A stretch of 64,000 nucleotides of DNA from Escherichia coli phage NG_A1. This document shows positions 3,041-56,805 of the stretch, piece by piece. Location of the stretch: the sequence record LC788705.1; one strand, written 5' to 3'. The position numbers and the translations under genes were made by a program. The notes beneath the pieces are model-generated. The model searched no databases. It saw nothing but the letters and a program-made list of their open reading frames with translations, and was not told the DNA's origin. The first letter of the stretch is position 1, and each line of letters opens with the position of its first letter.

Positions 3041-4058
3041 TTACTCGCTTTCGGTGTTAGTGGTAAAAGTAGAAATATCGATACCTTTTACCATTTCATC
3101 AATCATTTCAGCGATGTTAAAACTTTGCACCATTTCCAGCATTGCCGCTTCCATAGCCGCCCCTGCTACCGCTTTCGCCTTTTGGTTATTTGGGGCGTAT
3201 TGGTCAACCGCTACACTCAGCAGGTTAGCAATCACTACTCGACCAATAGGCGTATCGATATAACCTTTGATCATGAATGGTGCTTTTTTAGCCGCTACTT
3301 TCGTAATTTGAGTTAATGCAATTTTACCCGCCTCCAGTTTTGCAGCATTTACAACAGCGGATTTATTGGCGGCAACAATGTTAGCAATCTTGGTCATGGT
3401 GTTTTTTCCTTTGTTTTCAGTAGTTTGAGTGTTAACGCTTTGAGTGTTAGAATTTACAGCATGGTTTTCTACGCTGTCAATAATCTGATCTTCATCTTTC
3501 CAGAAAGAAAAACCAGCGCTTTCTATATCCCCATCATAAATATATGGGTATAGCTCCCGTGGTAACAAAAAATTACCGTCGTCATCAAAAGCCATTATAC
3601 CAGTATATTGAGATCCGTCGTTATCCGGCTTATGCCATCCAGCTGGTAAATACTTCCAGATAACATCTAAAAATCCCTCAATACTAGAAAGTCCGTTTAT
3701 CAGATCAAGCCCAATAAGCTCAAAACCATTTATATTAAATGATTGACGGCCTGAATTGCTATGATACGCAACAATATTATTACCCTGCGCAATAATAAAA
3801 TCGGTATCCGGCCCCGCTCCCCTGCCTGTAAAGATATGGCAATCCCGATTATATATATAAAACTAGCGTTGCCCCTTGCTTATATAATGGTAGAAAACTA
3901 TCCATATCATAGGCGTCATAATCATCAAAAAAGTTTTGATGAATAGTTTCAGCCTTGTTAATAAAATGTTTAATGCTGGTTGACTTGCTACCGTCCAGCA
4001 GGTTGCGCAATGCACCTTTTAAAACGGTGGCATTATCAGGTTTATACAGCCTCATTTG
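3041..4058 (-). CDS. Hypothetical pre-early protein, apparently interrupted by a +1 frameshift near 3849-3865 (fused product ~340 aa)
   Basis: Track ORFs 3849..4199 and 3041..3595 are joined by an 89-codon stop-free, start-less stretch (3596-3862) in the frame of the downstream ORF; strong GAGGGAGG RBS before ATG at 4058. Confidence 0.4.
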
Positions 4059-4320
4059 TTCGGCCTCCCTCGTTAATCGGTGAGTGAATGATATAGATAT
4101 TTGTTCACTAGGGGCAAGAAAAAAGAAAATGTTTTTTATTCCTTGCCTAGCGCCTAGTTTTATGCTAACCGCGCAGCGGTACAGTAAAGAGCAAAACACG
4201 GTGAAGCCACCAGGGCGACTGGTGAAGGCTTTACTTTAATATTACCCCACCGCATTTAGCTCGTTAGAAAGCGTTTTAGGCCGCTTAAAATTAATTGCAG
4301 TCGTTAACACTACCTTTCTA

Positions 4321-4620: not shown

Positions 4621-5139
4621 ATGCCTAAATATAAAGATATAGATTATGACCTTTTTAATAGTTACTTTTATTATGATGAAACAGCGTTATCATTTTTACG
4701 TTGGCGGGAGGATCACGCCGTCGCAGGTGGTTTAAATGGTAATTATTGGCAAGTTGAACTATTAGACATGGGACAATTCAAAGTACATAGAATTATCTTT
4801 TGTATAATGAATGGCGGTATAGATAGCGAGCTAATGATTGATCATATTGATCGTAACACACGTAACAATAACATCTGGAATCTTCGCGCGGTTGATAGTT
4901 CGCAGAATAATTATAATCGTACTCCTAGTGAGTATGAAAACTGTAAGCGTGCTAATGGTATCCCTAGAAACATTTACGTTAATAAAGTTCGCCCCCGTGA
5001 TAGTTTCGGGCGTGATTATTTAACTGCTCAAATTAAGAATCCTATTACTAACAAGCGTGTTAGTAAGTCTGGTTATGATTTACAAGAGTTATTATTATGG
5101 CTTGAAGCTAAAAAAGCTGAATTTGGAATTGTCAATTAA
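4621..5139 (+). CDS. HNH homing endonuclease (HNH_3-type)
   Basis: Motif IDHIDRNTRNNNIWNLR; AT-rich flanks; extended -10 TGATATAAT upstream. Confidence 0.7.
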   Translation: MPKYKDIDYDLFNSYFYYDETALSFLRWREDHAVAGGLNGNYWQVELLDMGQFKVHRIIFCIMNGGIDSELMIDHIDRNTRNNNIWNLRAVDSSQNNYNRTPSEYENCKRANGIPRNIYVNKVRPRDSFGRDYLTAQIKNPITNKRVSKSGYDLQELLLWLEAKKAEFGIVN

Positions 5140-11786: not shown

Positions 11787-13544
11787 ATGGGTTTTTTCGC
11801 TGGAAAATATAGCGATGGTAAGACCGTACTATCCTTAAATACTGAATCTGGTGGTGACATTAATCGTCACTATAGTCCAAATAATAATAGTATTTTTCAT
11901 AGTGATATGCCATTTGTTCTAGTTGATGGTACTTATGAGGTAGGATTAGGTGATGCCGGGAATGGGTTTTTCGTATGTCAGATGCCTCCTGATATAGTAA
12001 ATATTAAATCTAATGATCCTGGTAGAGTTATACTAACTGCTATTGAAATTAACGGCACTCACAGAGCTTTTCTTAATGGTACTCAGAGTAAAGTTGGTCA
12101 AACTATAGTTGCCACTCAAGCAGATCCCTTTAGATCTTTTGCTAGTGTTTCTCAAACCAGTGGATTTGCCTTTGGTAATAGTCTAGCATCCGGCACTTAT
12201 AATTATAATCCCTCTCTAGGGCACGAAGAATCTATCTCTAGGAGTGGTACAGGGGGTACTACGTTACATAGTACCTACCATGGGATAGTTAGGCCCGGTG
12301 CGGGAGCTCCTGTAGGTATTACTGTTGCAGAAGCTTTTGCACAATTAGGTTTTCCTATTAATAGTAGCACAGTACCTATAGATGGCAATAACCCGTACTA
12401 TTGGGATCCTGGATGGATATCACCTCTAGGAGCAGCGCATAGAGGGCATGATTGGTTTTATGTCTGCAATTCTAATATACGTGGATATGGTGGGGTTAGG
12501 CAAGGGCTCCCAGGTAATGTAAATACTATGTACCACGACGGTGGGAACAGATTTGTTTGTAGGGGATCTACTACTAATCTGGCCAACCAGTCTGGCAATC
12601 CTACGGTAATACAGGACTGGTATAATATAACTCCTACTAAGGTTATTTGGTATGTTCTTAATTTAAGGTACTCTAATAGTGGAATGAGTATTTCAGGCAA
12701 CCCCTTTACTGGTTCTGATATTCTTATATCTCCTTCTAATTTCATAATTAAAGGGGTAAGTCTCCCTAATACCGGGTATAAATTTATAAATCAGAATGCT
12801 TTTGGTAACCTAGGTTACCGTCCTGATATGGAGTATATAGGAAATAACGCAGCGTATACCGGGGTTTTTGGGGATACCACGGCAAGGTGTGAACTTGTAG
12901 GGTCTAGTAATGGAGGAGTATGGTCTCCTGTAGACTATGGTGGAGCTAAATCCCAAATTAGCATTTACAAATTCGGAGCTGGTAAGCAATGGTATGTAAA
13001 CTCTAGGGATAATACTATCGGTAATGAACACGGGGTTGTTTGGGGACCATCAGCAGTTCCATTACGACTTTTTGGTGGAAATGTAGGTAGTTCTTATATG
13101 GGAGATGATATTACTCCCAGCTACCCAGGAACGGGTGATAGATACGTTGGTTTATCAACTATTGGGCTAGGTATACCGGGTGGCAATGCTACAGTAATTC
13201 TTACCACTGAAGTTATATCAGGTAACCTTAACTGTGCAGGTGTTCCTGCTAATACATGGAATAACGGTGTGTTTCAAGTGCAAGGAAGAAGAGCATATAG
13301 CTATAGCGGCGGGGATGCAATATTCCACCAGATTTTAACGCTACCTGTGGGCTATCTAGTACCTTTTCATACTACATCTGCTTTTAGATATACACCTAAC
13401 AATGCTCTAAGTAGAAACAGTTTTATATACACTGTTAAAAATTTAGGAAATGGAAATGTAGAGTTAGGAGTAGTTATGCACGTGAGTTTGGGTAGTGCAG
13501 TTTTCCTACCTAGATTAAGAGTAACAGTTCAACGCCTTACCTAA
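11787..13544 (+). CDS. Receptor-binding tail protein, pb5/Oad-like (585 aa)
   Basis: N-terminus [41 protein letters not shown] resembles the T5 pb5 N-terminus as I recall it; divergent pairing with llp; Gly/Asn/Ser-rich. Confidence 0.6.
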
Positions 13545-15524: not shown

Positions 15525-16199
15525 ATGGGTCGACAAAAGCTAACAATAAAAGATATAAATATTAGATTAGCTGATCGTGGAATCCAAATTGTCGGTGAGT
15601 ATGTAAACCAACGTACAAAAACAGTATTTAAATGCCAGAGAGCACATGTTTGGGAAGCAACACCACATTCTATACTCCATATGGGGAGAGGTTGTCCACA
15701 CTGCTCCAATAATACAATATCGTTAGATGAAGTTAATAACAGAATATCTAATATAGGGTATACTCTGTTAAGCAGCTATACTAATGCTAAAACAAAACTA
15801 CATCTACGCTGCAATAAGGGGCATGACTGTTTAATTACCTTAGATGGATTGACTCAAGGTAAGAGATGTCCTTATTGTTCTCTTAAGTGGGAGAATGGCG
15901 GATTCCTCTATATCATGTCCTCCTCTAGTGGTACTAAAGTAGGCATAAGCTTATACCCTGAGAAACGGCTGAATGAAGTTAAAAGAGAATCTGGATTTTC
16001 TGACCTATACTTGTTCACCATGTATCATCTGCCAGATAGAGAGACTGCTTTAGATTTAGAAAAGGAAGTTCACAGAGAATATTATAATAAAAACTGTGGG
16101 TTTTCTAATTTTACAGGAAGCACGGAATTTTTTAATGTTGCTCCTGAGGATATAGTAATCTTTCTAAGTAGCTTTGGATTGGAGGATTATGGCCACTAA
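15525..16199 (+). CDS. T5orf172/GIY-YIG-like domain protein with N-terminal zinc-ribbon repeats, putative homing endonuclease (224 aa)
   Basis: Repeated CPHCS/CPYCS motifs; C-terminal GFLYIMSSSSGTKVGIS resembles the T5orf172 core. Confidence 0.55.
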   Translation: MGRQKLTIKDINIRLADRGIQIVGEYVNQRTKTVFKCQRAHVWEATPHSILHMGRGCPHCSNNTISLDEVNNRISNIGYTLLSSYTNAKTKLHLRCNKGHDCLITLDGLTQGKRCPYCSLKWENGGFLYIMSSSSGTKVGISLYPEKRLNEVKRESGFSDLYLFTMYHLPDRETALDLEKEVHREYYNKNCGFSNFTGSTEFFNVAPEDIVIFLSSFGLEDYGH

Positions 16200-16626: not shown

Positions 16627-17843
16627 TGGGTTTAAAAAGCTGGATTACTGAAAAGTTAAATCCGGGTCAACGTATTATAAGAGACATGGAACCAGTTAGT
16701 CATCGCACTAACCGTAAGCCTTTTACCACTGGACAAGCCTACAGTAAAATTGAGATTCTCAATAGAACTGCTAATATGGTTATAGATAGTGCGGCGGAGT
16801 GTTCTTATACTGTCGGAGATAAATATAATATTGTTACGTACGCTAATGGCGTCAAAACAAAGACTCTAGACACTCTCTTAAATGTACGACCTAATCCATT
16901 CATGGATATAAGCACATTCCGTAGACTTGTAGTCACTGACCTACTTTTTGAAGGTTGTGCATACATCTATTGGGATGGCACATCGCTTTACCATGTCCCG
17001 GCTGCTCTTATGCAGGTCGAGGCAGATGCCAATAAGTTTATCAAAAAGTTTATATTTAATAATCAGATAGACTATCGCGTAGATGAGATTATCTTTATAA
17101 AGGATAACAGTTACGTGTGTGGCACAAATTCTCAAATTTCTGGACAATCTCGTGTTGCTACTGTTATTGATTCTCTTGAAAAGCGTTCTAAGATGCTTAA
17201 CTTTAAAGAGAAATTCCTCGATAACGGAACCGTGATTGGTCTTATTCTTGAGACGGATGAAATCCTGAACAAGAAATTGCGTGAGCGTAAACAAGAAGAA
17301 TTACAACTCGATTATAATCCTAGTACGGGTCAGTCTTCTGTCCTGATTCTAGATGGTGGTATGAAAGCTAAACCGTACTCCCAAATATCCTCTTTTAAAG
17401 ATCTAGACTTTAAGGAAGACATCGAAGGATTTAATAAATCTATTTGTCTAGCCTTTGGAGTTCCGCAAGTACTGCTTGATGGTGGTAATAATGCGAATAT
17501 TCGACCAAACATCGAACTGTTCTATTACATGACTATCATCCCTATGCTGAACAAGCTGACTAGTTCTCTTACTTTCTTTTTTGGTTATAAGATTACTCCT
17601 AATACTAAGGAAGTAGCTGCATTAACACCAGATAAAGAATCTGAGGCTAAACATTTAACCTCATTGGTTAATAATGGTATTATAACTGGTAACGAAGCTC
17701 GTTTAGAGCTGAACCTTGAGCCTTTAGATGATGAGCAGATGAATAAGATTCGTATTCCTGCTAACGTCGCTGGTTCTGCAACAGGCGTATCCGGTCAAGA
17801 AGGTGGTAGACCTCAAGGTTCCACCGAGGGAGATAAAGAATGA
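16626..17843 (+). CDS. Portal protein, pb7-like (405 aa)
   Basis: Size and position between terminase and protease/capsid genes. Confidence 0.7.
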   Translation: MGLKSWITEKLNPGQRIIRDMEPVSHRTNRKPFTTGQAYSKIEILNRTANMVIDSAAECSYTVGDKYNIVTYANGVKTKTLDTLLNVRPNPFMDISTFRRLVVTDLLFEGCAYIYWDGTSLYHVPAALMQVEADANKFIKKFIFNNQIDYRVDEIIFIKDNSYVCGTNSQISGQSRVATVIDSLEKRSKMLNFKEKFLDNGTVIGLILETDEILNKKLRERKQEELQLDYNPSTGQSSVLILDGGMKAKPYSQISSFKDLDFKEDIEGFNKSICLAFGVPQVLLDGGNNANIRPNIELFYYMTIIPMLNKLTSSLTFFFGYKITPNTKEVAALTPDKESEAKHLTSLVNNGIITGNEARLELNLEPLDDEQMNKIRIPANVAGSATGVSGQEGGRPQGSTEGDKE

Positions 17844-18328
17844 TTGATTATAGTGGTCTAAAGACCATTTTTGGTGAAAAACTACCAGAATCTCATATCT
17901 TCTTTGCTACGGTTGCTGCGCATAAATATGTTCCTAGCTATGCTTTTCTGCGTAGAGAACTAGGACTTTCATCTGCGCATACTAACCGCAAAGTATGGAA
18001 GAAATTTGCAGAGGCTTACGGTAAGGCTGGTCCAGTAGACGTTGTCCCTGGAGCTCCTACATTGCAAGTAACTCCAGGTGAAAATTCAGTAACTTATACA
18101 ATTACTGATGGTACTAATACTGGCTCACCAATCACCCAGTATAAAGTATACTATACTGATGGGGTTACTCCGAAAACCCACAATTCTGGGTCTTCTAAAA
18201 CAGGTACTATTTCTACCCTAGAAGCAAAAGAGTATACTTTCCAGGCAGTAGCTGTTAATGGGGCGGGAGAATCTCCTAAATCTACAGCAGTAAAAGCTAC
18301 CCCAACTGCACCTGGTGTTGGAGGCTAA
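17840..18328 (+). CDS. Capsid decoration protein with Ig/FN3-like C-terminal domain, pb10-like (162 aa)
   Basis: C-terminal beta-rich segment VTPGENSVTYTITDG...YTFQAVAVNGAGES. Confidence 0.55.
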   Translation: MIDYSGLKTIFGEKLPESHIFFATVAAHKYVPSYAFLRRELGLSSAHTNRKVWKKFAEAYGKAGPVDVVPGAPTLQVTPGENSVTYTITDGTNTGSPITQYKVYYTDGVTPKTHNSGSSKTGTISTLEAKEYTFQAVAVNGAGESPKSTAVKATPTAPGVGG

Positions 18329-18981: not shown

Positions 18982-20358
18982 ATGACTATTGATATTAATA
19001 AGCTGAAAGAAGAACTTGGTCTGGGTGATCTGGCTAAATCTCTGGAAGGTCTGACCGCTGCTCAGAAAGCTCAGGAAGCTGAACGTATGCGTAAAGAGCA
19101 GGAAGAAAAAGAACTGGCTCGTATGAATGACCTGGTTTCTAAAGCTGTTGGTGAAGACCGTAAGCGTCTGGAAGAGGCTCTGGATCTGGTTAAGTCTCTG
19201 GATGAGAAATCTAAGAAGAGCGCAGAACTGTTTGCACAAACTGTAGAAAAACAACAGGAAACTATTGTTGGTCTTCAGGACGAAATTAAATCTCTGCTAA
19301 CAGCTCGTGAAGGTCGTTCCTTTGTTGGTGATAGTGTTGCTAAAGCACTGTACGGTACTCAGGAAAACTTTGAAGACGAAGTAGAAAAACTGGTTCTGTT
19401 GTCTTACGTAATGGAGAAAGGTGTATTCGAAACCGAACACGGTCAAAAACACCTGAAAGCAGTGAATCAGTCTTCTTCTGTAGAAGTTTCTAGTGAAAGC
19501 TATGAAACTATTTTCTCTCAGCGTATTATCCGTGACCTGCAGAAAGAGCTGGTAGTTGGCGCACTGTTCGAAGAACTGCCGATGTCCAGTAAGATTCTTA
19601 CTATGCTGGTTGAACCGGATGCTGGTAAAGCTACTTGGGTTGCTGCTTCTACTTATGGTACCGGTACAACTACTGGTGAGGAAGTTAAAGGCGCTCTTAA
19701 AGAGATCCACTTCAGTACTTACAAACTGGCTGCTAAGTCCTTCATTACTGATGAAACTGAAGAAGATGCAATCTTCTCCCTGCTGCCACTACTGCGTAAA
19801 CGTCTGATTGAAGCACACGCTGTTTCTATCGAAGAAGCCTTCATGACTGGTGATGGTCCCGGTAAGCCGAAAGGTCTGCTGACTCTTGCTAGTGAAGATA
19901 GTGCTAAAGTTATTACTGAAGCTAAAGCTGATGGTTCCGTACTGGTAACTGCTAAAACTATCTCTAAACTGCGTCGTAAACTGGGCCGTCATGGTCTGAA
20001 ACTGAGCAAACTGGTACTGATAGTATCTATGGATGCTTACTACGATCTGCTGGAAGACGAAGAATGGCAGGATGTTGCACAGGTTGGTAACGATGCTGTT
20101 AAACTGCAAGGTCAGGTTGGTCGTATCTATGGTCTTCCGGTTGTAGTTTCTGAATACTTCCCAGCTAAAGCAGCAGATAAAGAGTTCGCAGTTATTGTTT
20201 ATAAAGATAACTTCGTAATGCCACGCCAGCGTGCTGTTACTGTTGAACGTGAGCGCCAAGCTGGTAAACAGCGTGACGCATACTACGTTACTCAGCGTGT
20301 TAACCTGCAACGTTACTTTGCAAATGGCGTTGTATCTGGTGCTTACGCTGCATCTTAA
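18982..20358 (+). CDS. Major capsid protein precursor, pb8-like (458 aa)
   Basis: Size and position; coiled-coil-rich N-terminal scaffold-like delta domain; strongly E. coli-optimised codon usage; followed by a strong terminator. Confidence 0.85.
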   Translation: MTIDINKLKEELGLGDLAKSLEGLTAAQKAQEAERMRKEQEEKELARMNDLVSKAVGEDRKRLEEALDLVKSLDEKSKKSAELFAQTVEKQQETIVGLQDEIKSLLTAREGRSFVGDSVAKALYGTQENFEDEVEKLVLLSYVMEKGVFETEHGQKHLKAVNQSSSVEVSSESYETIFSQRIIRDLQKELVVGALFEELPMSSKILTMLVEPDAGKATWVAASTYGTGTTTGEEVKGALKEIHFSTYKLAAKSFITDETEEDAIFSLLPLLRKRLIEAHAVSIEEAFMTGDGPGKPKGLLTLASEDSAKVITEAKADGSVLVTAKTISKLRRKLGRHGLKLSKLVLIVSMDAYYDLLEDEEWQDVAQVGNDAVKLQGQVGRIYGLPVVVSEYFPAKAADKEFAVIVYKDNFVMPRQRAVTVERERQAGKQRDAYYVTQRVNLQRYFANGVVSGAYAAS

Positions 20359-20377: not shown

Positions 20378-20406
20378 AAGGAGAGCTTCGGCTCTCCTTT
20401 TTTATT
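20378..20406 (+). terminator. Intrinsic terminator after the major capsid gene
   Basis: Hairpin AAGGAGAGC-TTCG-GCTCTCCTT followed by TTTTTTATT. Confidence 0.8.
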
Positions 20407-22212: not shown

Positions 22213-23616
22213 ATGTCTTTACAACTATTACGTAATACTCGAATCTTCGTGTCTACGGTTAAGACTGGTCATAATAAGACCAACACGCAAGAGATTCTAG
22301 TTCAGGATGATATTTCTTGGGGTCAGGACAGTAACTCAACAGATATTACTGTTAATGAAGCTGGTCCGCGTCCAACTCGTGGTTCTAAACGTTTTAATGA
22401 CTCTTTAAACGCGGCTGAGTGGAGTTTCTCTACTTATATCCTGCCATATAAAGATAAAACTACTAACAAACAGATTGTCCCTGACTATATGTTATGGCAT
22501 GCTCTTTCTAGCGGTAAAGCTCTTAACTTAGAAGGTGATACAGGAGCACATAATAACGAAACCAATTTTATGGTTAACTTTAAAGATAACGCGTACCACG
22601 AACTGGCAATGCTGCATATCTACATCCTGACTGACAAAGCATGGAGTTACATCGACTCTTGCCAGATCAACCAGGCAGAAGTTAACGTTGATATTGAGGA
22701 TATTGGTCGTGTAACTTGGTCAGGTAATGGTAATCAGCTCATCCCGTTAGATAGCCAACCATTTGACCCAGATGCATTAGGTATTGATGATGAAACCTAT
22801 ATGACTATTCAGAGTTCTTACATTAAGAACAAACTGACTATCCTGAAAATTAAGGATATGGATTCTGGTAAGGCATATGACATTCCTATTACTGGTGGTA
22901 CGTTCACCATTAATAACAACATCACGTACCTAACCCCGAATATTATGTCACGTGTAAATATTCCAATCGGCTCATTTACGGGTGCGTTTGAGTTAACGGG
23001 TTCTTTGACAGCTTACCTTAATGATAAGTCTCTTGGTTCTATGGAACTGTACAAAGATCTGATTAAAACCCTTAAGGTAGTTAACCGTTTTGAAATCGCA
23101 CTTATTTTGGGTGGAGAATATGATGAGCGACCAGCAGCTGTGTTAGTTGCTAAACAGGCGCACGTTAATATTCCTACTATTGAGACTGATGATGTACTTG
23201 GTACTTCAGTAGAGTTTAAGGCTATTCCTACAGATTTGGATACTGGTGACGAAGGATACTTAGGCTTCTCTAACAAGTATACCAAAACTACAATAGCGAA
23301 TCTAATTGCTACCGGAGATGGTGCTAAAACTCCACCAAAACTAGTCGAATCAATCACAGTTAAATCTGCTGCTGATGCTACTTCTGTAACAAATAGTAAT
23401 ACTTTACAGATGTCTGTTGAGGTAACACCTCCAGAAGCTACTAATAAGGCTGTGACTTGGTCTATTTCTAGTGGTAACGCAGCTACAATTGATGCAGAAT
23501 CTGGGTTATTAACAGCTGATGCCTCTAAAACTGGTGCAGTTACTGTGAAGGCTGTAGCTAAAGATGGTTCTGGTGTAGAAGGTACTAAAACTATCACAGT
23601 TAGTGCTGGTGGTTAA
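22213..23616 (+). CDS. Major tail tube protein with C-terminal Ig-like (BIG2-type) domain, pb6-like (467 aa)
   Basis: C-terminal Ig-like segment TNSNTLQMSVEVTPPEATNKAVTWSISSGNAATIDAESGLLTA; AGGAG RBS. Confidence 0.8.
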   Translation: MSLQLLRNTRIFVSTVKTGHNKTNTQEILVQDDISWGQDSNSTDITVNEAGPRPTRGSKRFNDSLNAAEWSFSTYILPYKDKTTNKQIVPDYMLWHALSSGKALNLEGDTGAHNNETNFMVNFKDNAYHELAMLHIYILTDKAWSYIDSCQINQAEVNVDIEDIGRVTWSGNGNQLIPLDSQPFDPDALGIDDETYMTIQSSYIKNKLTILKIKDMDSGKAYDIPITGGTFTINNNITYLTPNIMSRVNIPIGSFTGAFELTGSLTAYLNDKSLGSMELYKDLIKTLKVVNRFEIALILGGEYDERPAAVLVAKQAHVNIPTIETDDVLGTSVEFKAIPTDLDTGDEGYLGFSNKYTKTTIANLIATGDGAKTPPKLVESITVKSAADATSVTNSNTLQMSVEVTPPEATNKAVTWSISSGNAATIDAESGLLTADASKTGAVTVKAVAKDGSGVEGTKTITVSAGG

Positions 23617-23620
23617 ATAA

Positions 23621-24523
23621 ATGTACTACTCTCTAATGCGAGAGTCAAAAGTTATAGTTGAGTATGATGGTAGGGCATTTCATTTTGATGCCCTATCAAA
23701 CTATGATATACAGACTTCCTACGAGGAATTCAAGACTCTTCGTAGGACTGTTCATCGTAGAACTAACTATGCAGACTCTATTATAAATGCTCAAACCCCC
23801 TCTTCTATCTCTCTAGCAATAAATTTCAGTAATACTCTTACAGAGGCTAACTTCTTTGAATGGTTAGGTTTTGATAGAAAAGGTAATACTTTCTTACTCC
23901 CACTATATAGTAGTAATATTGAACCTATTATGTTCAATATCTATATAGTAAATAAAGATAATAACTGTGTATATTTTGAAAACTGTTATGTATCTACGGT
24001 AGATTTTTCTTTAGATAAGAACATACCAATTCTTAATGTTGGTATTGAGTCTGGGAAATTCTCAGAAGTATCTACCTATAGAGAAGCAGCTTCTATTATA
24101 CAGGGTGAAGTAATGTCTTACAGCCCAGTAATAGCTTCTACTAATGGCAGCATCTTACCCGGTCTTATTTCTGCCTCTTTATCTTTCCAACAGCAGTGCT
24201 CCTGGAGAGAGGATAAGAGTGTTTTTGATATAAATAAAATTTATAATAATAAAAGAGCTTATGTAAATGAAATGAATGCTTCGGCAACCATTTCTCTATA
24301 TTACTTAAAACGTTTTGCAGGAGATATGGTTTACAATATCGAACCGGAGACAGATGTACCTTTAAATATAAGAAATAATAATATTTCTATAGATTTTCCT
24401 TCAGCACGTATTACAAAACGCCTAGATTTCTCAGATGTGTATAGAGTTGAGTGGGATATTATACCTACTGCTTCTTCAGACCCAGTGAGAATAGATTTCT
24501 TTGGAGAAATTAAAAATGATTAA
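23621..24523 (+). CDS. Hypothetical structural-module protein (300 aa)
   Basis: ORF track; position between tail tube and tape measure genes. Confidence 0.4.
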   Translation: MYYSLMRESKVIVEYDGRAFHFDALSNYDIQTSYEEFKTLRRTVHRRTNYADSIINAQTPSSISLAINFSNTLTEANFFEWLGFDRKGNTFLLPLYSSNIEPIMFNIYIVNKDNNCVYFENCYVSTVDFSLDKNIPILNVGIESGKFSEVSTYREAASIIQGEVMSYSPVIASTNGSILPGLISASLSFQQQCSWREDKSVFDINKIYNNKRAYVNEMNASATISLYYLKRFAGDMVYNIEPETDVPLNIRNNNISIDFPSARITKRLDFSDVYRVEWDIIPTASSDPVRIDFFGEIKND

Positions 24524-24920
24524 TTTAAAAGATATTACTCTTGATACTCGTACTATTACTCTTTCCTACCCAGGTATGCCGAACTTTAAATTAGAACTTA
24601 ACTATATGTCTCGTGCTACCTCTAAACGTGTTATTTCTTCTGCTAAACGCGATGAATGGGTTAATGGTACTTTGATTCAGGTACAGGATGATGATAAGTT
24701 CATTGAAGCCTTCGTTGACGCAGCTATTAAAGGTTGGACCGGTTTGACTGTAGGTGACGTTGAAAAACTGATGCTGATTGAAACAGATGCTGATCCTGCT
24801 ACTGAAGTTCCTTTTAGCCGCGATAATGCTGTAATGCTCATGCAGAACTCTGCTGCGTTTGATTCTTGGATCAACCAGACAGTGTTCCACTTAGACACTT
24901 TTCGTAGCCCAAAAGCGTAA
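24501..24920 (+). CDS. Putative tail assembly chaperone (139 aa)
   Basis: Position upstream of the tape measure gene; acidic. Confidence 0.4.
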   Translation: MEKLKMINLKDITLDTRTITLSYPGMPNFKLELNYMSRATSKRVISSAKRDEWVNGTLIQVQDDDKFIEAFVDAAIKGWTGLTVGDVEKLMLIETDADPATEVPFSRDNAVMLMQNSAAFDSWINQTVFHLDTFRSPKA

Positions 24921-29223: not shown

Positions 29224-29838
29224 ATGAGATTACCAGACCCATACACGAATCCAGAACTTTCAGGCTTAGGATTCGAAAGTGTTAACCTGATTGATAATGA
29301 CCCAGTAATTCGTGATGAGTTACCAAATGGTAAAGTTAACGAAGTTAAGGTATCTGCTCAATACTGGGGTATAAATATTTCTTATCCAGAATTATTTCCA
29401 GATGAATATAGTGTTCTAGATGCTTTTATTCTAGAATACAAAAGGACTGGTGGTTATATAGATGTTATATTACCCCAATACGAAGCTTTTAGAGTTAGAG
29501 GTAATACTAGTCTAGTAAATATACCTGCTGGACAGAAGGGTTCTAATATAACTATGGATACAAAAGGACTTCTTACAGGTACTCCAAAACCGGGGGATCT
29601 ATTTAAGCTGTCTAACCACCCAAAAGTATATAAAATAACATCATTTAACAAATCAGGTAATACATGGTCTATAAACTTATACCCTGATTTATTTATAACT
29701 ACTACTGGAGCGGAGAAGCCAGTATTTAATGGAATACTATTTAGAACAAAACTCATGAATGGTGATGCTTTTGGATCTACACTAAATAATAACGGAACAT
29801 ATTCCAACATCTCATTAAATTTACGGGAAAGTCTATGA
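29224..29838 (+). CDS. Distal tail protein (Dit), pb9-like (204 aa)
   Basis: Size and position directly after the tape measure gene; AAGAGGAG RBS. Confidence 0.65.
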   Translation: MRLPDPYTNPELSGLGFESVNLIDNDPVIRDELPNGKVNEVKVSAQYWGINISYPELFPDEYSVLDAFILEYKRTGGYIDVILPQYEAFRVRGNTSLVNIPAGQKGSNITMDTKGLLTGTPKPGDLFKLSNHPKVYKITSFNKSGNTWSINLYPDLFITTTGAEKPVFNGILFRTKLMNGDAFGSTLNNNGTYSNISLNLRESL

Positions 29839-34747: not shown

Positions 34748-35083
34748 ATGAGTACTGAAAATAGAGTTATAGACTTAGTGATAGATGAGAAAGTACCTTA
34801 TGGTCTAATGATGCAATTCTTAGATGTTGATGATAGTACTTATCCACCTACAAATACCCCTGTTAACTTAACGGGGTATTCTCTAAGGGGTACTATAAAG
34901 GCCGGGCTTGATGAGAATGCGGAAACTTTGGCATCTTTTACTACTAAAATTATTGATGCTGCTCAAGGTGCCATAGCTATAAGTTTACCTGTAGAGGCGG
35001 TAGATAATATTGGTGAAAAAGCTACCAAAGAGAGAGAGATAAGTATAACCCTCGCCAACGTTTTGCAGGATACTATGATATAA
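34748..35083 (+). CDS. Hypothetical tail-associated protein (111 aa)
   Basis: ORF between the pb4-like and tail-fibre genes. Confidence 0.4.
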
Positions 35084-39240: not shown

Positions 39241-39283
39241 AAGAAAACCCCAGAGGGATATCCCTCTGGGGTTTATTATTATT
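39241..39283. terminator. Bidirectional intrinsic terminator between convergent late and early modules
   Basis: 10-bp GC-rich stem CCCCAGAGGG-ATAT-CCCTCTGGGG flanked by an A-tract upstream and T-tract downstream. Confidence 0.85.
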
Positions 39284-43902: not shown

Positions 43903-43938
43903 ATGTTAAAAAGAAAGGGGCCGAAGCCCCTCTATTTA

Positions 43939-44712
43939 TTAGTCGTCCAGATCACTTGCAGCTTCTTGGTCAATACCTTTCTGGGAGCCAGCATTGCTGT
44001 TACCAGATTTGGCATCATCATCTTTATTCTCACGACCTTCCATGAAGGCTTGAATTGCTTCTTTCTGCTCTTCATAGGTAGGAACCGGATAGGTTTGTTC
44101 CAGAGAAGGGACTTTCTCAAACTTAATGATGTCGCCATCTTCATCACACATAGCTTCACCAATCAGATCTACATCTGCAGCATATTGCTTAGATTCTGCA
44201 CTGTTAGGATCTTGCAGCTTAATCTGGAACTGCATAGCAGCAATCTGCTGTACATCATACTCAGTATCGAAACCTTTGCCTTTTTTCTCGATAGAAATAT
44301 CAATATCAAACGGAGTTGCCAGATTCAGCTGCTTCATGATAGACTGGATGCCTTTCAGAATAGTAGCTTTGACTTCCATTACTTTCAGTTTGTTATCAGA
44401 ACGGTCGATAACAAAAGCGATATAGTTTTTCTTCGGTTTCAGCGGAACGCGATTGCCATCTTTATCCAGCTCTTTCTCAAAGAAGCCCATCTCATGAACC
44501 GGATCAGCTTTACCACGAACAAAGCTCTCTTTGTCGCGGTTAAAACGGAGACATTCGAAAGGAGCTACGCTACCTTCTTTATTAGTCAGCCAATAGACAT
44601 AACGTGGAAGAACACCAGAAACGATACGAACACGAGTGATACCGTTGTTGAACTTCAGGAATTCGATTTTATCGTTAGAACCGCCAGTAGTTTCGCCCCA
44701 AGACTTAGCCAT
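43939..44712 (-). CDS. Putative ssDNA-binding/recombination protein with acidic C-terminal tail (257 aa)
   Basis: Highly expressed-type codon usage; C-terminal acidic tail ending DQEAASDLDD; function inferred. Confidence 0.4.
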   Translation of the reverse strand: MAKSWGETTGGSNDKIEFLKFNNGITRVRIVSGVLPRYVYWLTNKEGSVAPFECLRFNRDKESFVRGKADPVHEMGFFEKELDKDGNRVPLKPKKNYIAFVIDRSDNKLKVMEVKATILKGIQSIMKQLNLATPFDIDISIEKKGKGFDTEYDVQQIAAMQFQIKLQDPNSAESKQYAADVDLIGEAMCDEDGDIIKFEKVPSLEQTYPVPTYEEQKEAIQAFMEGRENKDDDAKSGNSNAGSQKGIDQEAASDLDD

Positions 44713-45093: not shown

Positions 45094-45123
45094 TATATTA
45101 TACTAGATTTCGAGAGAATTTAG
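45094..45123 (-). promoter_or_regulatory. Early sigma70-type promoter (TTGCTA-N18-TATAAT)
   Basis: -35 at 45118-45123, -10 at 45094-45099 on the minus strand. Confidence 0.6.
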
Positions 45124-45194
45124 CAACTAAAATTTTTATTTTTCTGCTTCGGACTTTCTTATCAATCCGAAACTTTCTCTCTCAAATTTATGTA

Positions 45195-45223
45195 TATATT
45201 ATACATCATTTATGAGCTGTTGC
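45195..45223 (-). promoter_or_regulatory. Early sigma70-type promoter (TTGGCA-N17-TATAAT), tandem with the promoter at 45094
   Basis: -35 at 45218-45223, -10 at 45195-45200 on the minus strand. Confidence 0.55.
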
Positions 45224-46562
45224 CAAATGCAATTTTAGCTAATTGAACTGCTTTCTCCGGAGTCATAGTAATAGTTTTCCACCCGTTGTTACGATACACT
45301 GCCATACGTCCAGAAGCCTGTCTTAGTCCAGTGCCACCTTTCATAATTAGATCTACAACAATAGGGTCGAGTTTGCCCTCGACAATACGTTGAACACGGC
45401 CTGCAAGCTGTTCAATGAGAGATTCATTATTAATGAGGCTTCCCATTATTAAACAAGACAGCTCATTAAGGGAAATGCCTTCAGAGAAGATACTTTGAGC
45501 TGCTGCAAGTACACAAGGCCCACCTTTTGCTATATCTTCCTGAATTTTTAATCGATCATCAAGTGGGGTTGCGCCAATAATCTCATAGATTATGACTCCT
45601 CGCTGAGATAATGCTTCTAGTACTGTTTGGATTAACTCTGTTCTATCACTTACAATGAGTACTTTATGTCCCATATTCACATATAAATGTGCTAGGTTTA
45701 TAATAGTCTCTCGATATTCGGGATGGTTATACACATCATTAGCACGTAATGCCCACGGTACGTTTTGGTTTCCTGATAGCTCAACAGGCACGGAGTACCT
45801 ATGGATTGTAGGTGCAACAGTATTATTAACCGGTGGGCTAAATATCTTATATCCAAAGAAATCTTTGAACATAACTTGTAAACCATCTTTTCGTTTTAGC
45901 GTACCGGATAGTCCAATTTTATAGCGAGCACATGATATTTCTAGGAAGTTAGTGAAAGTTGTAGCCACACAATGGTGAACTTCATCAACTATAACAGTAC
46001 CGAATACTTTAGAAAGATTATTCGCATGTTTATTCACTGTTTGAATATTACTGACCACAATTGGTGGATCAATATTGTATTTTCCAGAACCTATGATACC
46101 TGGTTCAAACCCAAACCATTTACGAACTTCTGCCGCCCACATTTCACGAATAGATGTGTTGGTACAAATTACCAAAGTTTTCTGGCCAAATTTATACGCA
46201 AGTGCCAGGGCTAGGATAGTTTTGCCAAATCCAGGCTTACCATTAATAATACAGGTATCATCGCACTCTTCATATATTGGGAGCTGGTCTTCTTCACGCA
46301 GCTTGAACTTAGGTCTTGGTATATCTACTGGAGCTAATGTGCGTTTATCGACTAATTCGTATTTTACTCCTTTAGCATCTAGTAAATCCAGACGCGTGAT
46401 AGGAATCCACTTAATCTCTTTGGCAACAACACCACTATTCTTATACATAATAGGGTATTTACTAGTCATTGTCTCAATGTGATAAGTGGTTTGTTTACTA
46501 CAATAATCCCAAAGTTCATCATCGGGCTTGAAATAGGCTTTATTAGATATAACAACCTTCAT
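45210..46562 (-). CDS. SF2 DEAD/DEAH-box DNA helicase, T5 D10-like (450 aa)
   Basis: Walker A GKPGFGKT, DEVH box VIVDEVHH, motif III SGT. Confidence 0.8.
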   Translation of the reverse strand: MKVVISNKAYFKPDDELWDYCSKQTTYHIETMTSKYPIMYKNSGVVAKEIKWIPITRLDLLDAKGVKYELVDKRTLAPVDIPRPKFKLREEDQLPIYEECDDTCIINGKPGFGKTILALALAYKFGQKTLVICTNTSIREMWAAEVRKWFGFEPGIIGSGKYNIDPPIVVSNIQTVNKHANNLSKVFGTVIVDEVHHCVATTFTNFLEISCARYKIGLSGTLKRKDGLQVMFKDFFGYKIFSPPVNNTVAPTIHRYSVPVELSGNQNVPWALRANDVYNHPEYRETIINLAHLYVNMGHKVLIVSDRTELIQTVLEALSQRGVIIYEIIGATPLDDRLKIQEDIAKGGPCVLAAAQSIFSEGISLNELSCLIMGSLINNESLIEQLAGRVQRIVEGKLDPIVVDLIMKGGTGLRQASGRMAVYRNNGWKTITMTPEKAVQLAKIAFGNSS

Positions 46563-47056
46563 AATTTTATTCTAAGTCTAGGAATTTCAGGCTCCTCTTG
46601 ATGGACTTGGTAAATAACAGGGCTATTATTTACCAGAATATAGCTTATATAAGCTGGAACATAGGATAATACAAATGGATATGGAACTTTAGCTACATAG
46701 CATTGGTATTTTCCGTTGTAAATTCTAGCTGAATGCAAAACTTTAGAGGTGACAACATCATAAAACGTAGTTTTCTTCCAGTTAATAAGATTTCCATCAG
46801 AATCTATAAATTGGCTACGCTTTGACCCAACTAATTGAGACAACATGGATATTCTGCCCCTAATAGGATAGAGCTTATATGGTAATTCTTTCCGTTTCTC
46901 AAATAGAATAAGCCTACGTTGAGAAAAAGTGCCAGGCAACTTCCTGTTATCTAGTACATATTTATTATATCTTGTTGTAATTACGGAATAATCACCTTCT
47001 TGCTCAATTGATACAAAAGCCCGTAAAGCATATACGGGCAATTTGAAATCAAGCAC
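46559..47056 (-). CDS. Hypothetical early protein (165 aa)
   Basis: ORF with overlapping stop/start between helicase and polymerase genes. Confidence 0.45.
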   Translation of the reverse strand: MLDFKLPVYALRAFVSIEQEGDYSVITTRYNKYVLDNRKLPGTFSQRRLILFEKRKELPYKLYPIRGRISMLSQLVGSKRSQFIDSDGNLINWKKTTFYDVVTSKVLHSARIYNGKYQCYVAKVPYPFVLSYVPAYISYILVNNSPVIYQVHQEEPEIPRLRIKL

Positions 47057-49616
47057 CGAGAATCCTTCTCACGTTATCCAAATCTTTACATACAGCAATA
47101 AACTTATCATCCTTGTATTTGCTATGATCTGGATGCTCTTTATCCATTGCAGCTAGTTTCTTATACTCGAATTCTGCATCAAGTAATACACCCTTGACAT
47201 AACGAGTATATTCATCATCATCAATACAAGCGATTGATGGGTGCTGTTTCTTCATCTTACCACAAGAGTAGTCGCGAGAACCTCCAGCTTCAGAATCTGA
47301 ATCAATACCAATCGGACAGCCAGGAATACTAATACCGCGGTCTTTCTGAATATTACGAATCAGGATTTCATTGTATTGGTCGATCAAATCCTCACGAACA
47401 ATAGCAACTACGGAGTCGTGAACCAGCATAACAATCTTCATCTCTTGTTCTAGGCCAAGAGAAATGATCTCATTATCTGCATCTACAGCACCTAAAAGGA
47501 GACTATCAGAAGAAGCAGACTGAATGATTGCGTTAAATCCAGAACGGATTTCTTCACCTTGAACACCACGGTCTTCGGAGTGGATATTATGCAGACGACG
47601 TTTACGACCAAAGTGACTATAGATAAATCCATGATTCTTGATCTGATCATGGCACTTATCAATCCAACGCTTAAGCTGCGGGAACTGACCGAAGTAAGTT
47701 TCTATATACTCTTTAGCATCTGCAACCGTACACTCTACAAACGGTTCGCCTGTCTTAGCAGCCTGTTCCAGAAGAGCTTCGTTAACAGAATGAGCTACTT
47801 TAGCTGGGCCAGAACCATACAGAATACCAAAGGTGATTGCTTTAGCTGCTTGACGCAGAGCTGGGAATAACTTTTTAACATCACGAGGCTCGCATTGGAG
47901 CTTAAATACCATGTGTGCGATGTTAGAGTGGAAGTCGGGGTATTTATCTGGTTCATTTCTCATGTTGATAAATACTTGTTGCATATTTCTATCACCAGAT
48001 AGAACAGCAGCATAATAAACTTCCGCAGTTGTTAAGTCCCATGCAATTACACGATACCCGGGAGGAGCTACTACACAACCCTTGATAATAGATTCATCAC
48101 GAGGTAACTGTTGCAGGTTCAGTTTACCAGAAGAACTCAGACGACCAGAAGTAGTCATATGTTCATGGAAACCAGTACGAATGCAACCATCTGCATCAAT
48201 ACTCAGAAGAATCTTCTCAACATAAGTAGAGATCAGCTTAGTCAGCTTACGAATCTCTAGTAGAGTCTTAGCAATTGGATGCTGCGTAGACAATTCGTTC
48301 AGAGCTTCTGCATCTGTAGAGTCTGCTCCAGTATCCGTCAATTTACCTGTTGGAGTTAAGCCAACATAATCAAATAGAAGAACACGGAGTTGTTTAACAG
48401 AGTTTGGGTTAAACGCTTCGTTCTGATCTTTCTCTAGCTGAACGACTTCTGGATAAGTATACAGTTTTTCACGAGCTTTATTCAGATTATGGGTTAACTG
48501 GTACTGAGCTTCTTTTAAACGATCAATAGAAATAGGTACACCACGATCCTCAACACGCTGGAGAAATACACAACCAGGCATTAGGACATCATAATACAGA
48601 CTACAAAGTTTTTCATTCTTCTCAATTTTTGGTAAGAAGAAGTTGTGCAAACGTATGGTAGCATCGGTATCTTTCGCAGCGTAAGGCCACATAATATCAA
48701 ACGGAATTAAATCATAGGTGAAATCTTCTTTCTTGATTTTATGTGCTTTGCAGTAATCCTCTTTGAACTTATCTAGTTCGAAGTCATAGTCACCCATATC
48801 GGTATACTTCATTGCTAGAGATTTCAAGCCATGAGTACCACGACGTTCATCTAGAACATAATGCTGCAACATAGTATCATGGAGCCTGCGTTCTTTATGC
48901 GCTTTATCAAAAGTAAGTCCCAGATGGTACTTATAAAAGTGCATATCAAACTTCAGGTTGTGAAAAACAATAGTGTGGTTTTCACTATCCAGAATTTTCT
49001 GGAGATAATATACTGCAACCTCTGTGAGACAATCAGAATCGATATATACACCCTGATACTCTTGGTGAGACATAGAAACACCAAGCAGATAACCATCTCG
49101 ACAGTATAGTGCTGAGGTTTCGGAGTCGAATGCGACAGGTCCGATAACCATATTATACACCATCTTGATATATTCTTCCGCCTCGTCAGGGTCAGTAATA
49201 GGACGGTAATCACCAGCTTTTGCAACCTTCTCACGACCATTGATAATATCGTGGATATTTTCTACTGTTGCATCGAAAACTGGTTTCATTTCAGGTTTAA
49301 AGTGTAACTGGGCTGGGCTGATACTCGCAATCCAGTTAGCATATCCATTATACTCTACACGTTTACCAGTATAGTCACCAATGCCTTTCTTACCTGCGAA
49401 ATACAGGAAAGGTTCAGCACCTACTAGTATAACAAAATCGTAATCATTCGGATCAAATGGGTTTTCTGGTGTTCCAATAGTAATGTGCTTTTTAAGCAAA
49501 CGACCAGATAACTTCTCATTACACATATGGAATACATCAACTTCCTCGCCGTATAGCTGGAAATGTTTATCGTAACGAGTGTTGTTTAGGGCTTTATCAA
49601 CTACTGCGATTTTCAA
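47049..49616 (-). CDS. DNA polymerase, family A with 3'-5' exonuclease domain (855 aa)
   Basis: Exo motif VAFDSETSAL; polymerase motif B KAITFGILYGSG; motif C LVHDSVV. Confidence 0.85.
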   Translation of the reverse strand: MKIAVVDKALNNTRYDKHFQLYGEEVDVFHMCNEKLSGRLLKKHITIGTPENPFDPNDYDFVILVGAEPFLYFAGKKGIGDYTGKRVEYNGYANWIASISPAQLHFKPEMKPVFDATVENIHDIINGREKVAKAGDYRPITDPDEAEEYIKMVYNMVIGPVAFDSETSALYCRDGYLLGVSMSHQEYQGVYIDSDCLTEVAVYYLQKILDSENHTIVFHNLKFDMHFYKYHLGLTFDKAHKERRLHDTMLQHYVLDERRGTHGLKSLAMKYTDMGDYDFELDKFKEDYCKAHKIKKEDFTYDLIPFDIMWPYAAKDTDATIRLHNFFLPKIEKNEKLCSLYYDVLMPGCVFLQRVEDRGVPISIDRLKEAQYQLTHNLNKAREKLYTYPEVVQLEKDQNEAFNPNSVKQLRVLLFDYVGLTPTGKLTDTGADSTDAEALNELSTQHPIAKTLLEIRKLTKLISTYVEKILLSIDADGCIRTGFHEHMTTSGRLSSSGKLNLQQLPRDESIIKGCVVAPPGYRVIAWDLTTAEVYYAAVLSGDRNMQQVFINMRNEPDKYPDFHSNIAHMVFKLQCEPRDVKKLFPALRQAAKAITFGILYGSGPAKVAHSVNEALLEQAAKTGEPFVECTVADAKEYIETYFGQFPQLKRWIDKCHDQIKNHGFIYSHFGRKRRLHNIHSEDRGVQGEEIRSGFNAIIQSASSDSLLLGAVDADNEIISLGLEQEMKIVMLVHDSVVAIVREDLIDQYNEILIRNIQKDRGISIPGCPIGIDSDSEAGGSRDYSCGKMKKQHPSIACIDDDEYTRYVKGVLLDAEFEYKKLAAMDKEHPDHSKYKDDKFIAVCKDLDNVRRILGA

Positions 49617-52586: not shown

Positions 52587-52620
52587 TGCAAAAAGGGGAA
52601 GGAGCATAGCCCCCTCCCCT
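52587..52620 (-). terminator. Intrinsic terminator on the minus strand
   Basis: 11-bp G/C-rich stem with two G-U pairs followed by UUUUU on the minus strand. Confidence 0.6.
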
Positions 52621-52638
52621 TAGGTTTAATTTACCAGA

Positions 52639-53406
52639 TTATTCAGCAGCCGCAGCTTTTGCATCCAGTTTAGCACGCTTAGCGGCACCATCATAGTCCT
52701 TAGCAACCAGACCACGACGAGACAGCATAGATTTAACACCGCGCTCAGACTTACCAGTTTTCTCAGCGATCTCAGCAACAGTCATGTTAACCAGATCCAG
52801 ACCTTCTAACAGATCTTCACGAGTTTTAGCACTTGAGGTTTCCTGTACCGGCATAGCAGCGATACGACCTTCACGAAGCAGGCTCAGAGCTTTACCGCGG
52901 ATCTGCTTAATATTACGACCGAAGTGAGCAGCGATAGCTTCAATAGTAGCACCAGCAACAACCTGATTAACAAAATCAGTTTCTTCATCTGGAGTGAAGG
53001 AACGAACAGCAGCAGCTTTTTCGGTTGGCTTAACAGAAGCGGTCATTTCCAGACTCAGAATCTTACCCTGTACCTGCTTAGCACCGAACTGACCACCAGC
53101 CACAGCAGCAGCGATTTCAGCATAGGTATACTGACCAGCATGAGCGTTCAGGAAATCAACCAGTTCAGCTTCCTGCTCAGGAGTCCACGGGGATTTCTGT
53201 ACTTCGTTAGCTTTCTGTACTTCAAAACCTTCTTTACGCAGTTTAGAGCCAACAGAGCGAGCGGTAACATCTTTGCCAGTTTCAGCGGCCAGTTCAGCAG
53301 CGATAGCAGCTACTTGTTCTTGAGAGATTACAGCAACACCCAGAGCAGTGGCTTTTGCTTTCAGAGACTCGGTTACACCTTCTACGTTCCAGTTCAGTTT
53401 AGACAT
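52639..53406 (-). CDS. DNA-binding protein with three tandem HTH-like repeats, T5 D5-like (255 aa)
   Basis: Three repeats of the type T(I/V)AEIA...G...VK..LS; E. coli-optimised codon usage. Confidence 0.5.
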   Translation of the reverse strand: MSKLNWNVEGVTESLKAKATALGVAVISQEQVAAIAAELAAETGKDVTARSVGSKLRKEGFEVQKANEVQKSPWTPEQEAELVDFLNAHAGQYTYAEIAAAVAGGQFGAKQVQGKILSLEMTASVKPTEKAAAVRSFTPDEETDFVNQVVAGATIEAIAAHFGRNIKQIRGKALSLLREGRIAAMPVQETSSAKTREDLLEGLDLVNMTVAEIAEKTGKSERGVKSMLSRRGLVAKDYDGAAKRAKLDAKAAAAE

Positions 53407-54199: not shown

Positions 54200-54228
54200 A
54201 TTATAGCAAGTATTTAAGCATTTAGCAA
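54200..54228 (-). promoter_or_regulatory. Early sigma70-type promoter (TTGCTA-N17-TATAAT) inside the gap between the ligase fragments
   Basis: -35 at 54223-54228, -10 at 54200-54205 on the minus strand. Confidence 0.6.
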
Positions 54229-54371
54229 CTACAATTTTAACTAACTTTGCTTACCCTCGCCATAACTTTCTATCCCTCAACTGAATGATAATAGTATATA
54301 CCTAAGCGGCGAAAATGTCAATAACCACTTTATAATTCCGATATGGTAGATGGGTAGCAAAGGGTTATGTA

Positions 54372-56394: not shown

Positions 56395-56805
56395 TTACTT
56401 AGTGATAGCTCGGATTGCTTCTGCCAGATGAGCAGCCGCTTTACCGGTCAGTTTGTCGATAATTGCATCATCCAGAAAATCTGGTGCTAGGCCAGCATCA
56501 GAGAATGCTGAACGAAGATCGGCATGAGCTTGGGCTTTGGAAGTGCGAGAACCACCAGAAGCTTTTTCTCCAGTAGATGCACTAGATTTAGAAGCAGAGC
56601 CAGCAGCTTTCTTGATATATACACCTGCTTTGGTCAACTTCATACGAAAACCGTTCGGAGTTACACCATTTTCCTGAGCAATTTCGCTAACAATTTCCAT
56701 GCTAACACCCGGACGTTCATCCTCTGGGAATTGCTCCATACGAGCAACGTATTCGGAAGACATTTTTTCGAACAGTTCATCAGTCCACTGAGTTGGAGTA
56801 GTCAT
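56395..56805 (-). CDS. HTH-repeat DNA-binding protein, paralogue of the D5-like protein (136 aa)
   Basis: Segment VSMEIVSEIAQENGVTPNGFRMKLTKAG matches the repeat unit of 52639..53406. Confidence 0.45.
   Translation of the reverse strand: MTTPTQWTDELFEKMSSEYVARMEQFPEDERPGVSMEIVSEIAQENGVTPNGFRMKLTKAGVYIKKAAGSASKSSASTGEKASGGSRTSKAQAHADLRSAFSDAGLAPDFLDDAIIDKLTGKAAAHLAEAIRAITK

Follow-up and report, generated by a model that had tools for sequence, protein, structure and literature searches.

Host-like codon usage in the major capsid, D5 and SSB genes of a T5-like Escherichia coli phage

In earlier studies of T7, lambda and T4, Sharp and colleagues reportedly dealt with host-preferred codons in phage genes. 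Phage-encoded tRNAs compensate for codons that the phage uses often and its host seldom, as Bailly-Bechet et al. reportedly described in 2007. Translational selection for host-preferred codons in structural genes was demonstrated in a set of 74 phages, T5 among them (Lucks, Nelson, Kudla & Plotkin 2008, PMC2266997), and compensation by phage-encoded tRNAs has been reviewed (PMC4810235). Here, codon usage was analyzed gene by gene in a stretch of 64,000 nucleotides from Escherichia coli phage NG_A1 (LC788705.1), referred to below as the window, with emphasis on its major capsid protein (MCP) gene. The MCP gene and two further genes, encoding D5 and SSB, were found to share the codon preferences of highly expressed E. 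coli genes, and translational selection on synonymous codons is very probably the cause. This effect is the classical one on high-copy phage genes and is already known.

The window belongs to a T5-like phage (Tequintavirus, Demerecviridae). Two 25-kb segments showed 94–97% nucleotide identity with Tequintavirus records, and gene order and gene-by-gene orthology were likewise T5-like. Proteins of two annotated relatives (NC_048205.1 and NC_104259.1) were compared with every open reading frame (ORF) of the window to carry over gene calls; with a few window ORFs lacking a counterpart in those relatives, this resulted in a set of 74 genes. By orthology, the three loci correspond to pb8 (the major head protein), D5 and SSB of T5. 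At the DNA level, the capsid ORF was 96–98% identical to the genes for the major head protein in T5-like phages of Escherichia and Salmonella, and its product shared 97.6% amino-acid identity with T5 pb8. D5, a DNA-binding protein and late-transcription factor, matched phrog_323 ('transcriptional regulator, D5-like', E = 1.5e-71) as well as HTH / sigma-70 region 4 entries. The SSB gene, described in the initial annotation as an acidic-tail gene, matched phrog_1607 (SSB, E = 2.3e-106).

For each gene, a codon adaptation index (CAI) was calculated against 31 E. coli MG1655 genes encoding ribosomal proteins, EF-Tu, EF-G and RpoA. The resulting relative adaptiveness values (w) were compared, as a cross-check only, with Sharp-Li values (r = 0.98), and the ranking of genes was identical. 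Significance was expressed as a z-score. In the first null model, the protein sequence was kept fixed and synonymous codons were resampled at the frequencies seen elsewhere in the window; in the second, the G/C class of each third base was kept as well.

MCP, D5 and SSB were the three strongest codon-bias outliers, with SSB ranking third, and D5 had the highest CAI of the window (Table 1). The median CAI of the 74 genes was 0.338 (interquartile range 0.29–0.42). The E. coli reference genes themselves had a CAI of 0.68 on average, and 21 of 22 non-reference E. coli genes from the same locus lay between 0.24 and 0.46, the exception being chiA (0.54). Under the second null model, z was +11.6 for MCP, +9.0 for D5 and +7.8 for SSB, so the bias is real and far beyond chance. 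Along the capsid gene it was uniform, each 40-codon block having a CAI of 0.59–0.80; the N-terminal scaffold (delta) domain, which is cleaved off, had a CAI of 0.74 and the mature part 0.72. The initial annotation had described the capsid ORF as written almost entirely in E. coli high-expression codons and had extended the same bias to the D5 and acidic-tail genes. The extension was borne out (CAI 0.775 and 0.670), and outliers in per-gene CAI were indeed present. The wording for the capsid gene was too strong: the bias is pronounced (z +18.3), but the single best E. coli codon made up 67% of MCP codons, and w was at least 0.5 for 83% of them. Over the three genes, the best codon accounted for 54–71% of codons, compared to 37% elsewhere.

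Leucine was encoded by CTG in 82–89% of cases in MCP, D5 and SSB versus 13% elsewhere, and arginine by CGT in 75–91%. AGA, AGG, CGA, CGG, GGA and GGG were absent from the three genes, and TTA and ATA occurred once each in total. Relative synonymous codon usage (RSCU) of the three genes correlated with that of E. coli ribosomal-protein and elongation-factor genes (r = 0.88) far more than with that of weakly expressed E. coli genes (0.41); for the rest of the window, the corresponding values were 0.32 and 0.08. Codon by codon, enrichment followed log w of E. coli (Spearman 0.85). Over the 56 longer genes, RSCU varied mainly along a first principal axis that correlated with the E. coli CAI (0.89) and had MCP, D5 and SSB at its extreme.

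Codon bias was then related to protein abundance. The CAI z-score correlated with virion copy number (rho 0.65, p = 0.012, n = 14), two of the 14 values being copy numbers that we assumed, three for pb4 and one for pb5. Published copy numbers comprise 775 MCP subunits, 120 tail-tube subunits (40 trimeric rings), one decoration protein for each of 120 hexons, 12 portal, 12 adaptor, 6 terminator, 6 Dit, 12 LtfC and 9 LtfA subunits, and trimers of TTMP, TTHP and TMP (PMC11313276, PMC10713586). Among virion proteins, the window CAI correlated with BF23 virion mass spectrometry intensity (Spearman rho 0.84, p = 4e-5, n = 16; data from PMC10644984); a comparison with proteomic abundance had been suggested in the initial annotation. 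On SDS-PAGE of T5 and BF23 lysates, the capsid and tail-tube bands were strongest and D5 was 'unexpectedly... also very abundant' (PMC10644984). The capsid protein and D5 of these gels correspond to the two top-CAI genes here, and the tail-tube gene was an outlier as well. The proposal that the bias marks the most highly translated proteins is thereby supported by data from close relatives.

Orthologues of the capsid gene were examined in other phages. The capsid gene was the top outlier in T5 (CAI 0.71, z 19.6) and also in a Klebsiella phage with 69% protein identity (CAI 0.79, z 19.0). At such divergence silent sites should be near saturated, which argues that the bias is maintained by selection. 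Two further phages, one of Vibrio harveyi and one of Proteus mirabilis, likewise had the capsid gene as the most biased of its module, and it differed significantly from its own neighbours. The preferred leucine codon of these two capsid genes was CTA (71%) or TTA (43%) and not CTG, glutamine was encoded by CAA (83–87%) and not CAG, proline by CCA and not CCG, and the preferred serine codon was also switched; CGT, GGT and ATC were still preferred. No high-expression reference genes of Vibrio or Proteus were found among 120 loci retrieved by scanning the genome collection with a degenerate rpsL pattern, and Providencia rustigianii, of the same family as Proteus, was taken as proxy host. The Proteus-phage capsid gene correlated with Providencia rpsL, rpsG and fusA at r = 0.88 and with E. 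coli at 0.55, the reference being a proxy genus and 769 codons in size. Switching of codons with host genus is a prediction of selection driven by host tRNAs, tested here by proxy. A comparison of nonsynonymous (dN) and synonymous (dS) divergence between the window and T5 over 15 late genes neither showed nor excluded a lower dS of the capsid gene, because dS ranged from 0.09 to >2 between adjacent genes, the genomes being recombination mosaics.

Translational selection is thus considered the highly probable explanation. A few proteins would be needed in very large stoichiometric amounts, namely the capsid protein, with 775 subunits in each virion, and D5 and SSB, which coat DNA. Codons for scarce host tRNAs would have been removed from the genes of these proteins in favour of those read by major host tRNAs (CTG, CGT, GGT, GCT, GTT, ACT, TCT, CCG, CAG, ATC, AAC and TTC). 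We infer that the selected effect is faster or more accurate decoding; elongation on these mRNAs would then be quicker and more faithful, and fewer ribosomes would be occupied. Other genes would drift with the A/T-biased mutation pressure of the phage toward AGA, TTA, CTA, ACA, TCA and CAA, codons for which T5-like phages carry tRNA genes. As the biased genes appear to lie in compact promoter-gene-terminator units, a high mRNA level and efficient decoding might go together.

Several observations weigh against this explanation. Aspartate was mostly encoded by GAT in the three genes (71–89%), isoleucine mostly by ATT in MCP, and tyrosine exclusively by TAT in D5 and SSB; at two-fold pyrimidine codons, the C-ending form made up just 0.35–0.54. 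RSCU of the window MCP gene fitted Providencia high-expression genes as well as those of E. coli (0.86 versus 0.85), and the codons that tell these two hosts apart are CTG, CAG and CCG only. Shine-Dalgarno strength was weakly related to CAI (rho −0.26), the top genes having ordinary GGAG sites, and is thus of no use as a marker. The abundance data were obtained with the relatives T5 and BF23 and not with this phage. Copy number alone is also no predictor, as the head decoration protein pb10, with 120 copies per virion, was encoded without codon bias. This protein was 49% identical to its counterpart in phage mar004NP2 and had a dN of 0.38 versus T5, whereas the flanking portal and protease were 99–100% identical; from these identities, the pb10 gene is apparently a divergent swapped allele.

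Of the explanations that dispense with selection for decoding, one holds that the biased genes lie in GC-richer patches, caused by local mutation bias or strand effects, and that a higher G+C content at third positions (GC3) mimics E. coli preference. Regional G+C content was indeed above the window norm of ~0.39, reaching 0.443 at 19–20 kb and 0.43–0.44 at 52–54 kb. This excess arose from first codon positions, where G+C content was 0.64 in MCP and 0.64–0.67 in the genes of the high-GC regions, owing to GNN codons (Ala, Glu, Val, Gly) and to CTG for leucine, and so reflects amino-acid content, the three proteins being rich in Ala, Glu, Val and Lys. At synonymous third positions, G+C content (GC3s) was 0.31 in MCP, 0.31 in D5 and 0.38 in SSB, within the range of window genes (0.17–0.48); late genes neighbouring MCP had ~0.2–0.3. 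GC3 was not raised (0.31 against ~0.27). Third-base T made up 43–48% in the three genes, as in the rest of the window, and both strands carry biased genes. What is biased is the choice of particular codons, independently of GC3, and compositional heterogeneity was rejected on the test that preserves GC3, under which the three outliers persisted; it is regarded as extremely improbable. The contrast with AT-rich neighbours drawn in the initial annotation accordingly stands for individual codons and fails for silent-site base composition. The GC3 comparison suggested there would have missed the signal that CAI detects, as GC3 is ordinary in MCP and D5. Recent horizontal acquisition from the host, or from a phage of E. 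coli-like composition, with too little time to drift to the T5 background, would fit the mosaic nature of T5-like genomes seen in the dS values above. MCP, D5 and SSB are, however, conserved core genes across Demerecviridae, one pattern is common to these three unlinked genes, and the capsid bias recurs in T5, Klebsiella, Proteus and Vibrio phages, each with its own codon choices. Their A/T-rich third positions (GC3s 0.31) are far from those of E. coli ribosomal-protein genes (0.48), and the truly mobile HNH endonucleases had the lowest CAI. The hypothesis was rejected on the grounds of core-gene status, conservation across the family and third-position composition, and its probability is negligible.

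Tuning of highly expressed genes to phage-encoded rather than host tRNAs would be plausible for a phage group with more than 20 tRNA genes. No tRNA genes were found within the window, and the phage set was taken from the close relative LmqsSP1, whose tRNA region corresponds to one outside the window; it comprises 21 tRNA genes, with anticodons for AGA, TTA, CTA, ACA, TCA, CAA and CCA among them. For T5, 25 tRNA genes have been listed (PMC2266997). Some preferred codons (CAG, ATC, AAC, TTC, CAC, AAA and GAA) have a Watson-Crick cognate in the LmqsSP1 set. The most enriched ones (CTG, CCG, CGT, GCT, GGT, ACT, TCT and GTT) have none, and the host-rare codons mostly served by phage tRNAs (the seven above plus ATA) occurred at 27 per 1000 codons in MCP, D5 and SSB versus 130 per 1000 elsewhere. 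Overall, codon enrichment was not associated with the presence of a phage tRNA (Mann-Whitney p = 0.55, with the set of a relative). Since the most enriched codons lack a phage tRNA and phage-tRNA codons are avoided, the abundant proteins appear to be written for host tRNAs, and tuning to phage tRNAs is very unlikely. About as unlikely is selection on the stability or structure of the mRNA, or against sites for nucleases, nicking or restriction, with the resemblance to the host as a by-product. Stable 3′ hairpins could also stabilize mRNA, and the evidence presented here is not a direct measure of translation. Such selection does not predict the codon-by-codon match to E. coli w (rho 0.85) or codon switching with host genus in the orthologues, and the bias extends over nearly all amino acids and the whole gene length. 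A contribution of this kind is conceivable.

Beyond translational selection as such, T5-like phages might use two coding channels, a handful of stoichiometric proteins being written for major host tRNAs in promoter-gene-terminator islands and the bulk of the genome in A-ending codons for phage tRNAs. That such a partition is deliberate is a possibility we consider rather doubtful. The channel for host tRNAs may include capsid, D5, SSB and the phrog_1725 protein described below, and partly DNA polymerase, tail tube and chaperone. If the partition were adaptive and not a side effect of selection strength, loss of the phage tRNAs or host defences that cleave tRNAs would hit the two classes differently, and abundant proteins whose function is unknown could be predicted from codon bias combined with a terminator downstream.

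The four genes with the highest z (MCP, D5, SSB and DNA polymerase) were each followed, at 5–19 nt, by a terminator-like hairpin and T-run. Such hairpins were present at 14 of 74 genes, so that their occurrence at all top four corresponds to a hypergeometric p of ~9e-4. A putative rho-independent terminator is annotated in the T5 record at the position equivalent to that of the capsid hairpin. D5 and SSB each stand second in a two-gene unit that opens with strong sigma-70-like promoters in a 200-nt gap. The hairpin after D5 encloses a Shine-Dalgarno-like GGGGAGGGGG, and the ATG annotated for the DnaB-type helicase gene (start codon at 52607) falls within the hairpin loop. Judged by its position, this hairpin could both end the D5 transcript and mask helicase initiation; the helicase start could otherwise be mis-annotated. 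A perfect 13-bp palindromic hairpin (39245–39274, dG −24.6) with T-runs on both strands is located between the convergent late (+) and early (−) blocks and looks like a bidirectional terminator.

Moderate positive outliers were the genes for DNA polymerase, the tail-tube protein and the tail assembly chaperone. None of the high-CAI ORFs in the window was unannotated, each being an already recognized gene. The use of codon bias for flagging unannotated abundant proteins, as put forward in the initial annotation, found one case in a 136-aa early protein with the next-highest CAI after the three main genes. Its product is 'hypothetical' in related records and matched phrog_1725 ('DNA binding protein', E = 1.7e-50). 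The protein contains a low-complexity Ser/Ala/Gly/Lys linker, and Pfam and PDB searches returned no significant match. It is probably an abundant DNA-associated protein, as predicted from codon bias and the PHROG match.

The lowest CAI values were found for three HNH endonucleases and for receptor-binding and tail-tip proteins of low copy number; the majority of tail and tail-tip genes were below expectation (z −2 to −5.7). The low-copy proteins pb5, pb3 and the lateral fibre protein used host-preferred codons significantly below the window-average expectation, and pb5 and the lateral fibre protein were strongly divergent from the counterparts in relatives. The HNH ORF at 50566–51087 is situated between the primase and helicase genes, where the relative LmqsSP1 has no gene, and looks like a recent mobile insertion. 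Coordinates of all features are listed in Table 1.

Table 1. Genes and putative regulatory elements of the window considered in the codon usage analysis (z, first null model; dG, predicted hairpin stability)
Feature	Coordinates	Strand	CAI	z	Remarks
Major capsid protein gene (pb8 orthologue)	18982..20358	+	0.726	+18.3	458 aa
D5 gene	52639..53406	−	0.775	+13.9	255 aa
SSB gene	43939..44712	−	0.670	+10.0	257 aa
DNA polymerase gene	47049..49616	−	0.478	+8.0	GC3-controlled z +5.2
136-aa early protein gene	56395..56805	−	0.625	+5.7	fourth-highest CAI
Tail-tube protein gene (pb6 orthologue)	22213..23616	+	0.467	+5.5	120 copies/virion
Tail assembly chaperone gene	24516..24920	+	0.573	+5.6	phrog_313
Head decoration protein pb10 gene	17840–18328	+		+0.7	
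Receptor-binding protein pb5 gene	11787–13544	+		−5.6	
Baseplate hub pb3 gene	29835–32684	+		−5.7	
Lateral fibre protein gene	35172–37226	+		−4.0	
HNH homing-endonuclease ORF	15681–16199	+		−2.6 to −4.1	range for the three HNH ORFs
HNH homing-endonuclease ORF	50566–51087	−		−2.6 to −4.1	as above
HNH homing-endonuclease ORF	57926–58384	−		−2.6 to −4.1	as above
Putative intrinsic terminator after capsid gene	20378..20399	+			UUCG loop and T-run, 19 nt past stop; dG −14.5
Terminator-like hairpin after D5	52593..52621	−			13 bp; dG −22.4
Putative terminator hairpin after SSB	43914..43933	−			UUCG loop, 5–6 nt past stop; dG −12.5
Terminator-like hairpin after DNA polymerase	47019..47039	−			9 nt past stop; within 5′ end of next annotated ORF
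Two candidate sigma-70-like promoters, ligase A–D5 unit	54200..54321	−			upstream of unit; TTGACA-17-TATACT and TTGCTA-17-TATAAT; consensus matches only
Two strong candidate sigma-70-like promoters, ORF 44705–44989–SSB unit	45097..45226	−			upstream of unit; 11/12 and 10/12; consensus matches only

Three genes of the window appeared split or shortened compared to relatives. The ORFs at 3041–3595 and 3849–4199 (−) are fragments in two frames matching one 330-aa protein of relatives; of a 589-aa tail-fibre protein, just the first ~194 aa are matched by the ORF at 37511–38122 (+), which is followed by an ORF at 38335–39240 (+); and collar protein p132 (34748–35083, +) has 111 aa compared to 140 in relatives. 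Frameshifts, sequencing errors or an exchange of modules could account for these three cases. A 172-aa ORF (4621–5139, +) of the pre-early (terminal repeat) region lacked a counterpart in the annotated gene set of the relative from which genes were transferred.

In practice, a CAI scan against host ribosomal-protein genes finds the bulk-made proteins of a T5-like phage, and a GC3 scan does not. Switching of leucine, glutamine and proline codons with host genus in the capsid genes supports capsid codon choice as a signal for host prediction, a use already suggested by Lucks et al. (PMC2266997). The practical value is modest and current understanding is unchanged; what is added are details, namely that few individual genes are concerned, two of them early and DNA-binding, that terminators follow them and that phage-tRNA codons are avoided in them.

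The randomization logic used here is the same as that of Lucks et al. 2008 (PMC2266997). In the present window, unlike in that survey, 'structural' as a class was not enriched; the signal was concentrated in single genes, two of which, D5 and SSB, encode DNA-binding proteins that are early and non-structural. Those authors called the link with phage tRNAs 'equivocal' (PMC2266997), whereas the top genes of the window clearly avoid host-rare codons for which a relative carries tRNAs. Compared to the E. coli ribosomal-protein, EF-Tu and EF-G genes on which the CAI of Sharp and Li is based, MCP, D5 and SSB reach an equal CAI (0.67–0.78, against 0.68 for the reference genes) and share the preferred set CTG, CGT, GGT, GCT, GTT, ACT/ACC, TCT, CCG, CAG, AAA, GAA, ATC, AAC and TTC. 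Their third positions are more A/T-rich (GC3s 0.31–0.38 versus 0.48), with fewer C-ending codons for Asp, Thr, Ser and Gly, for Tyr in D5 and SSB and for Ile in MCP; with this incomplete match, the genes strike a balance between the preference of the host and the mutation bias of the phage. As in systems with phage-tRNA compensation, the bulk of the window is rich in AGA, TTA, CTA, ACA, TCA and CAA, and exactly those anticodons are represented among the LmqsSP1 tRNAs. MCP, D5 and SSB form the contrary case, being among the few genes independent of these tRNAs.

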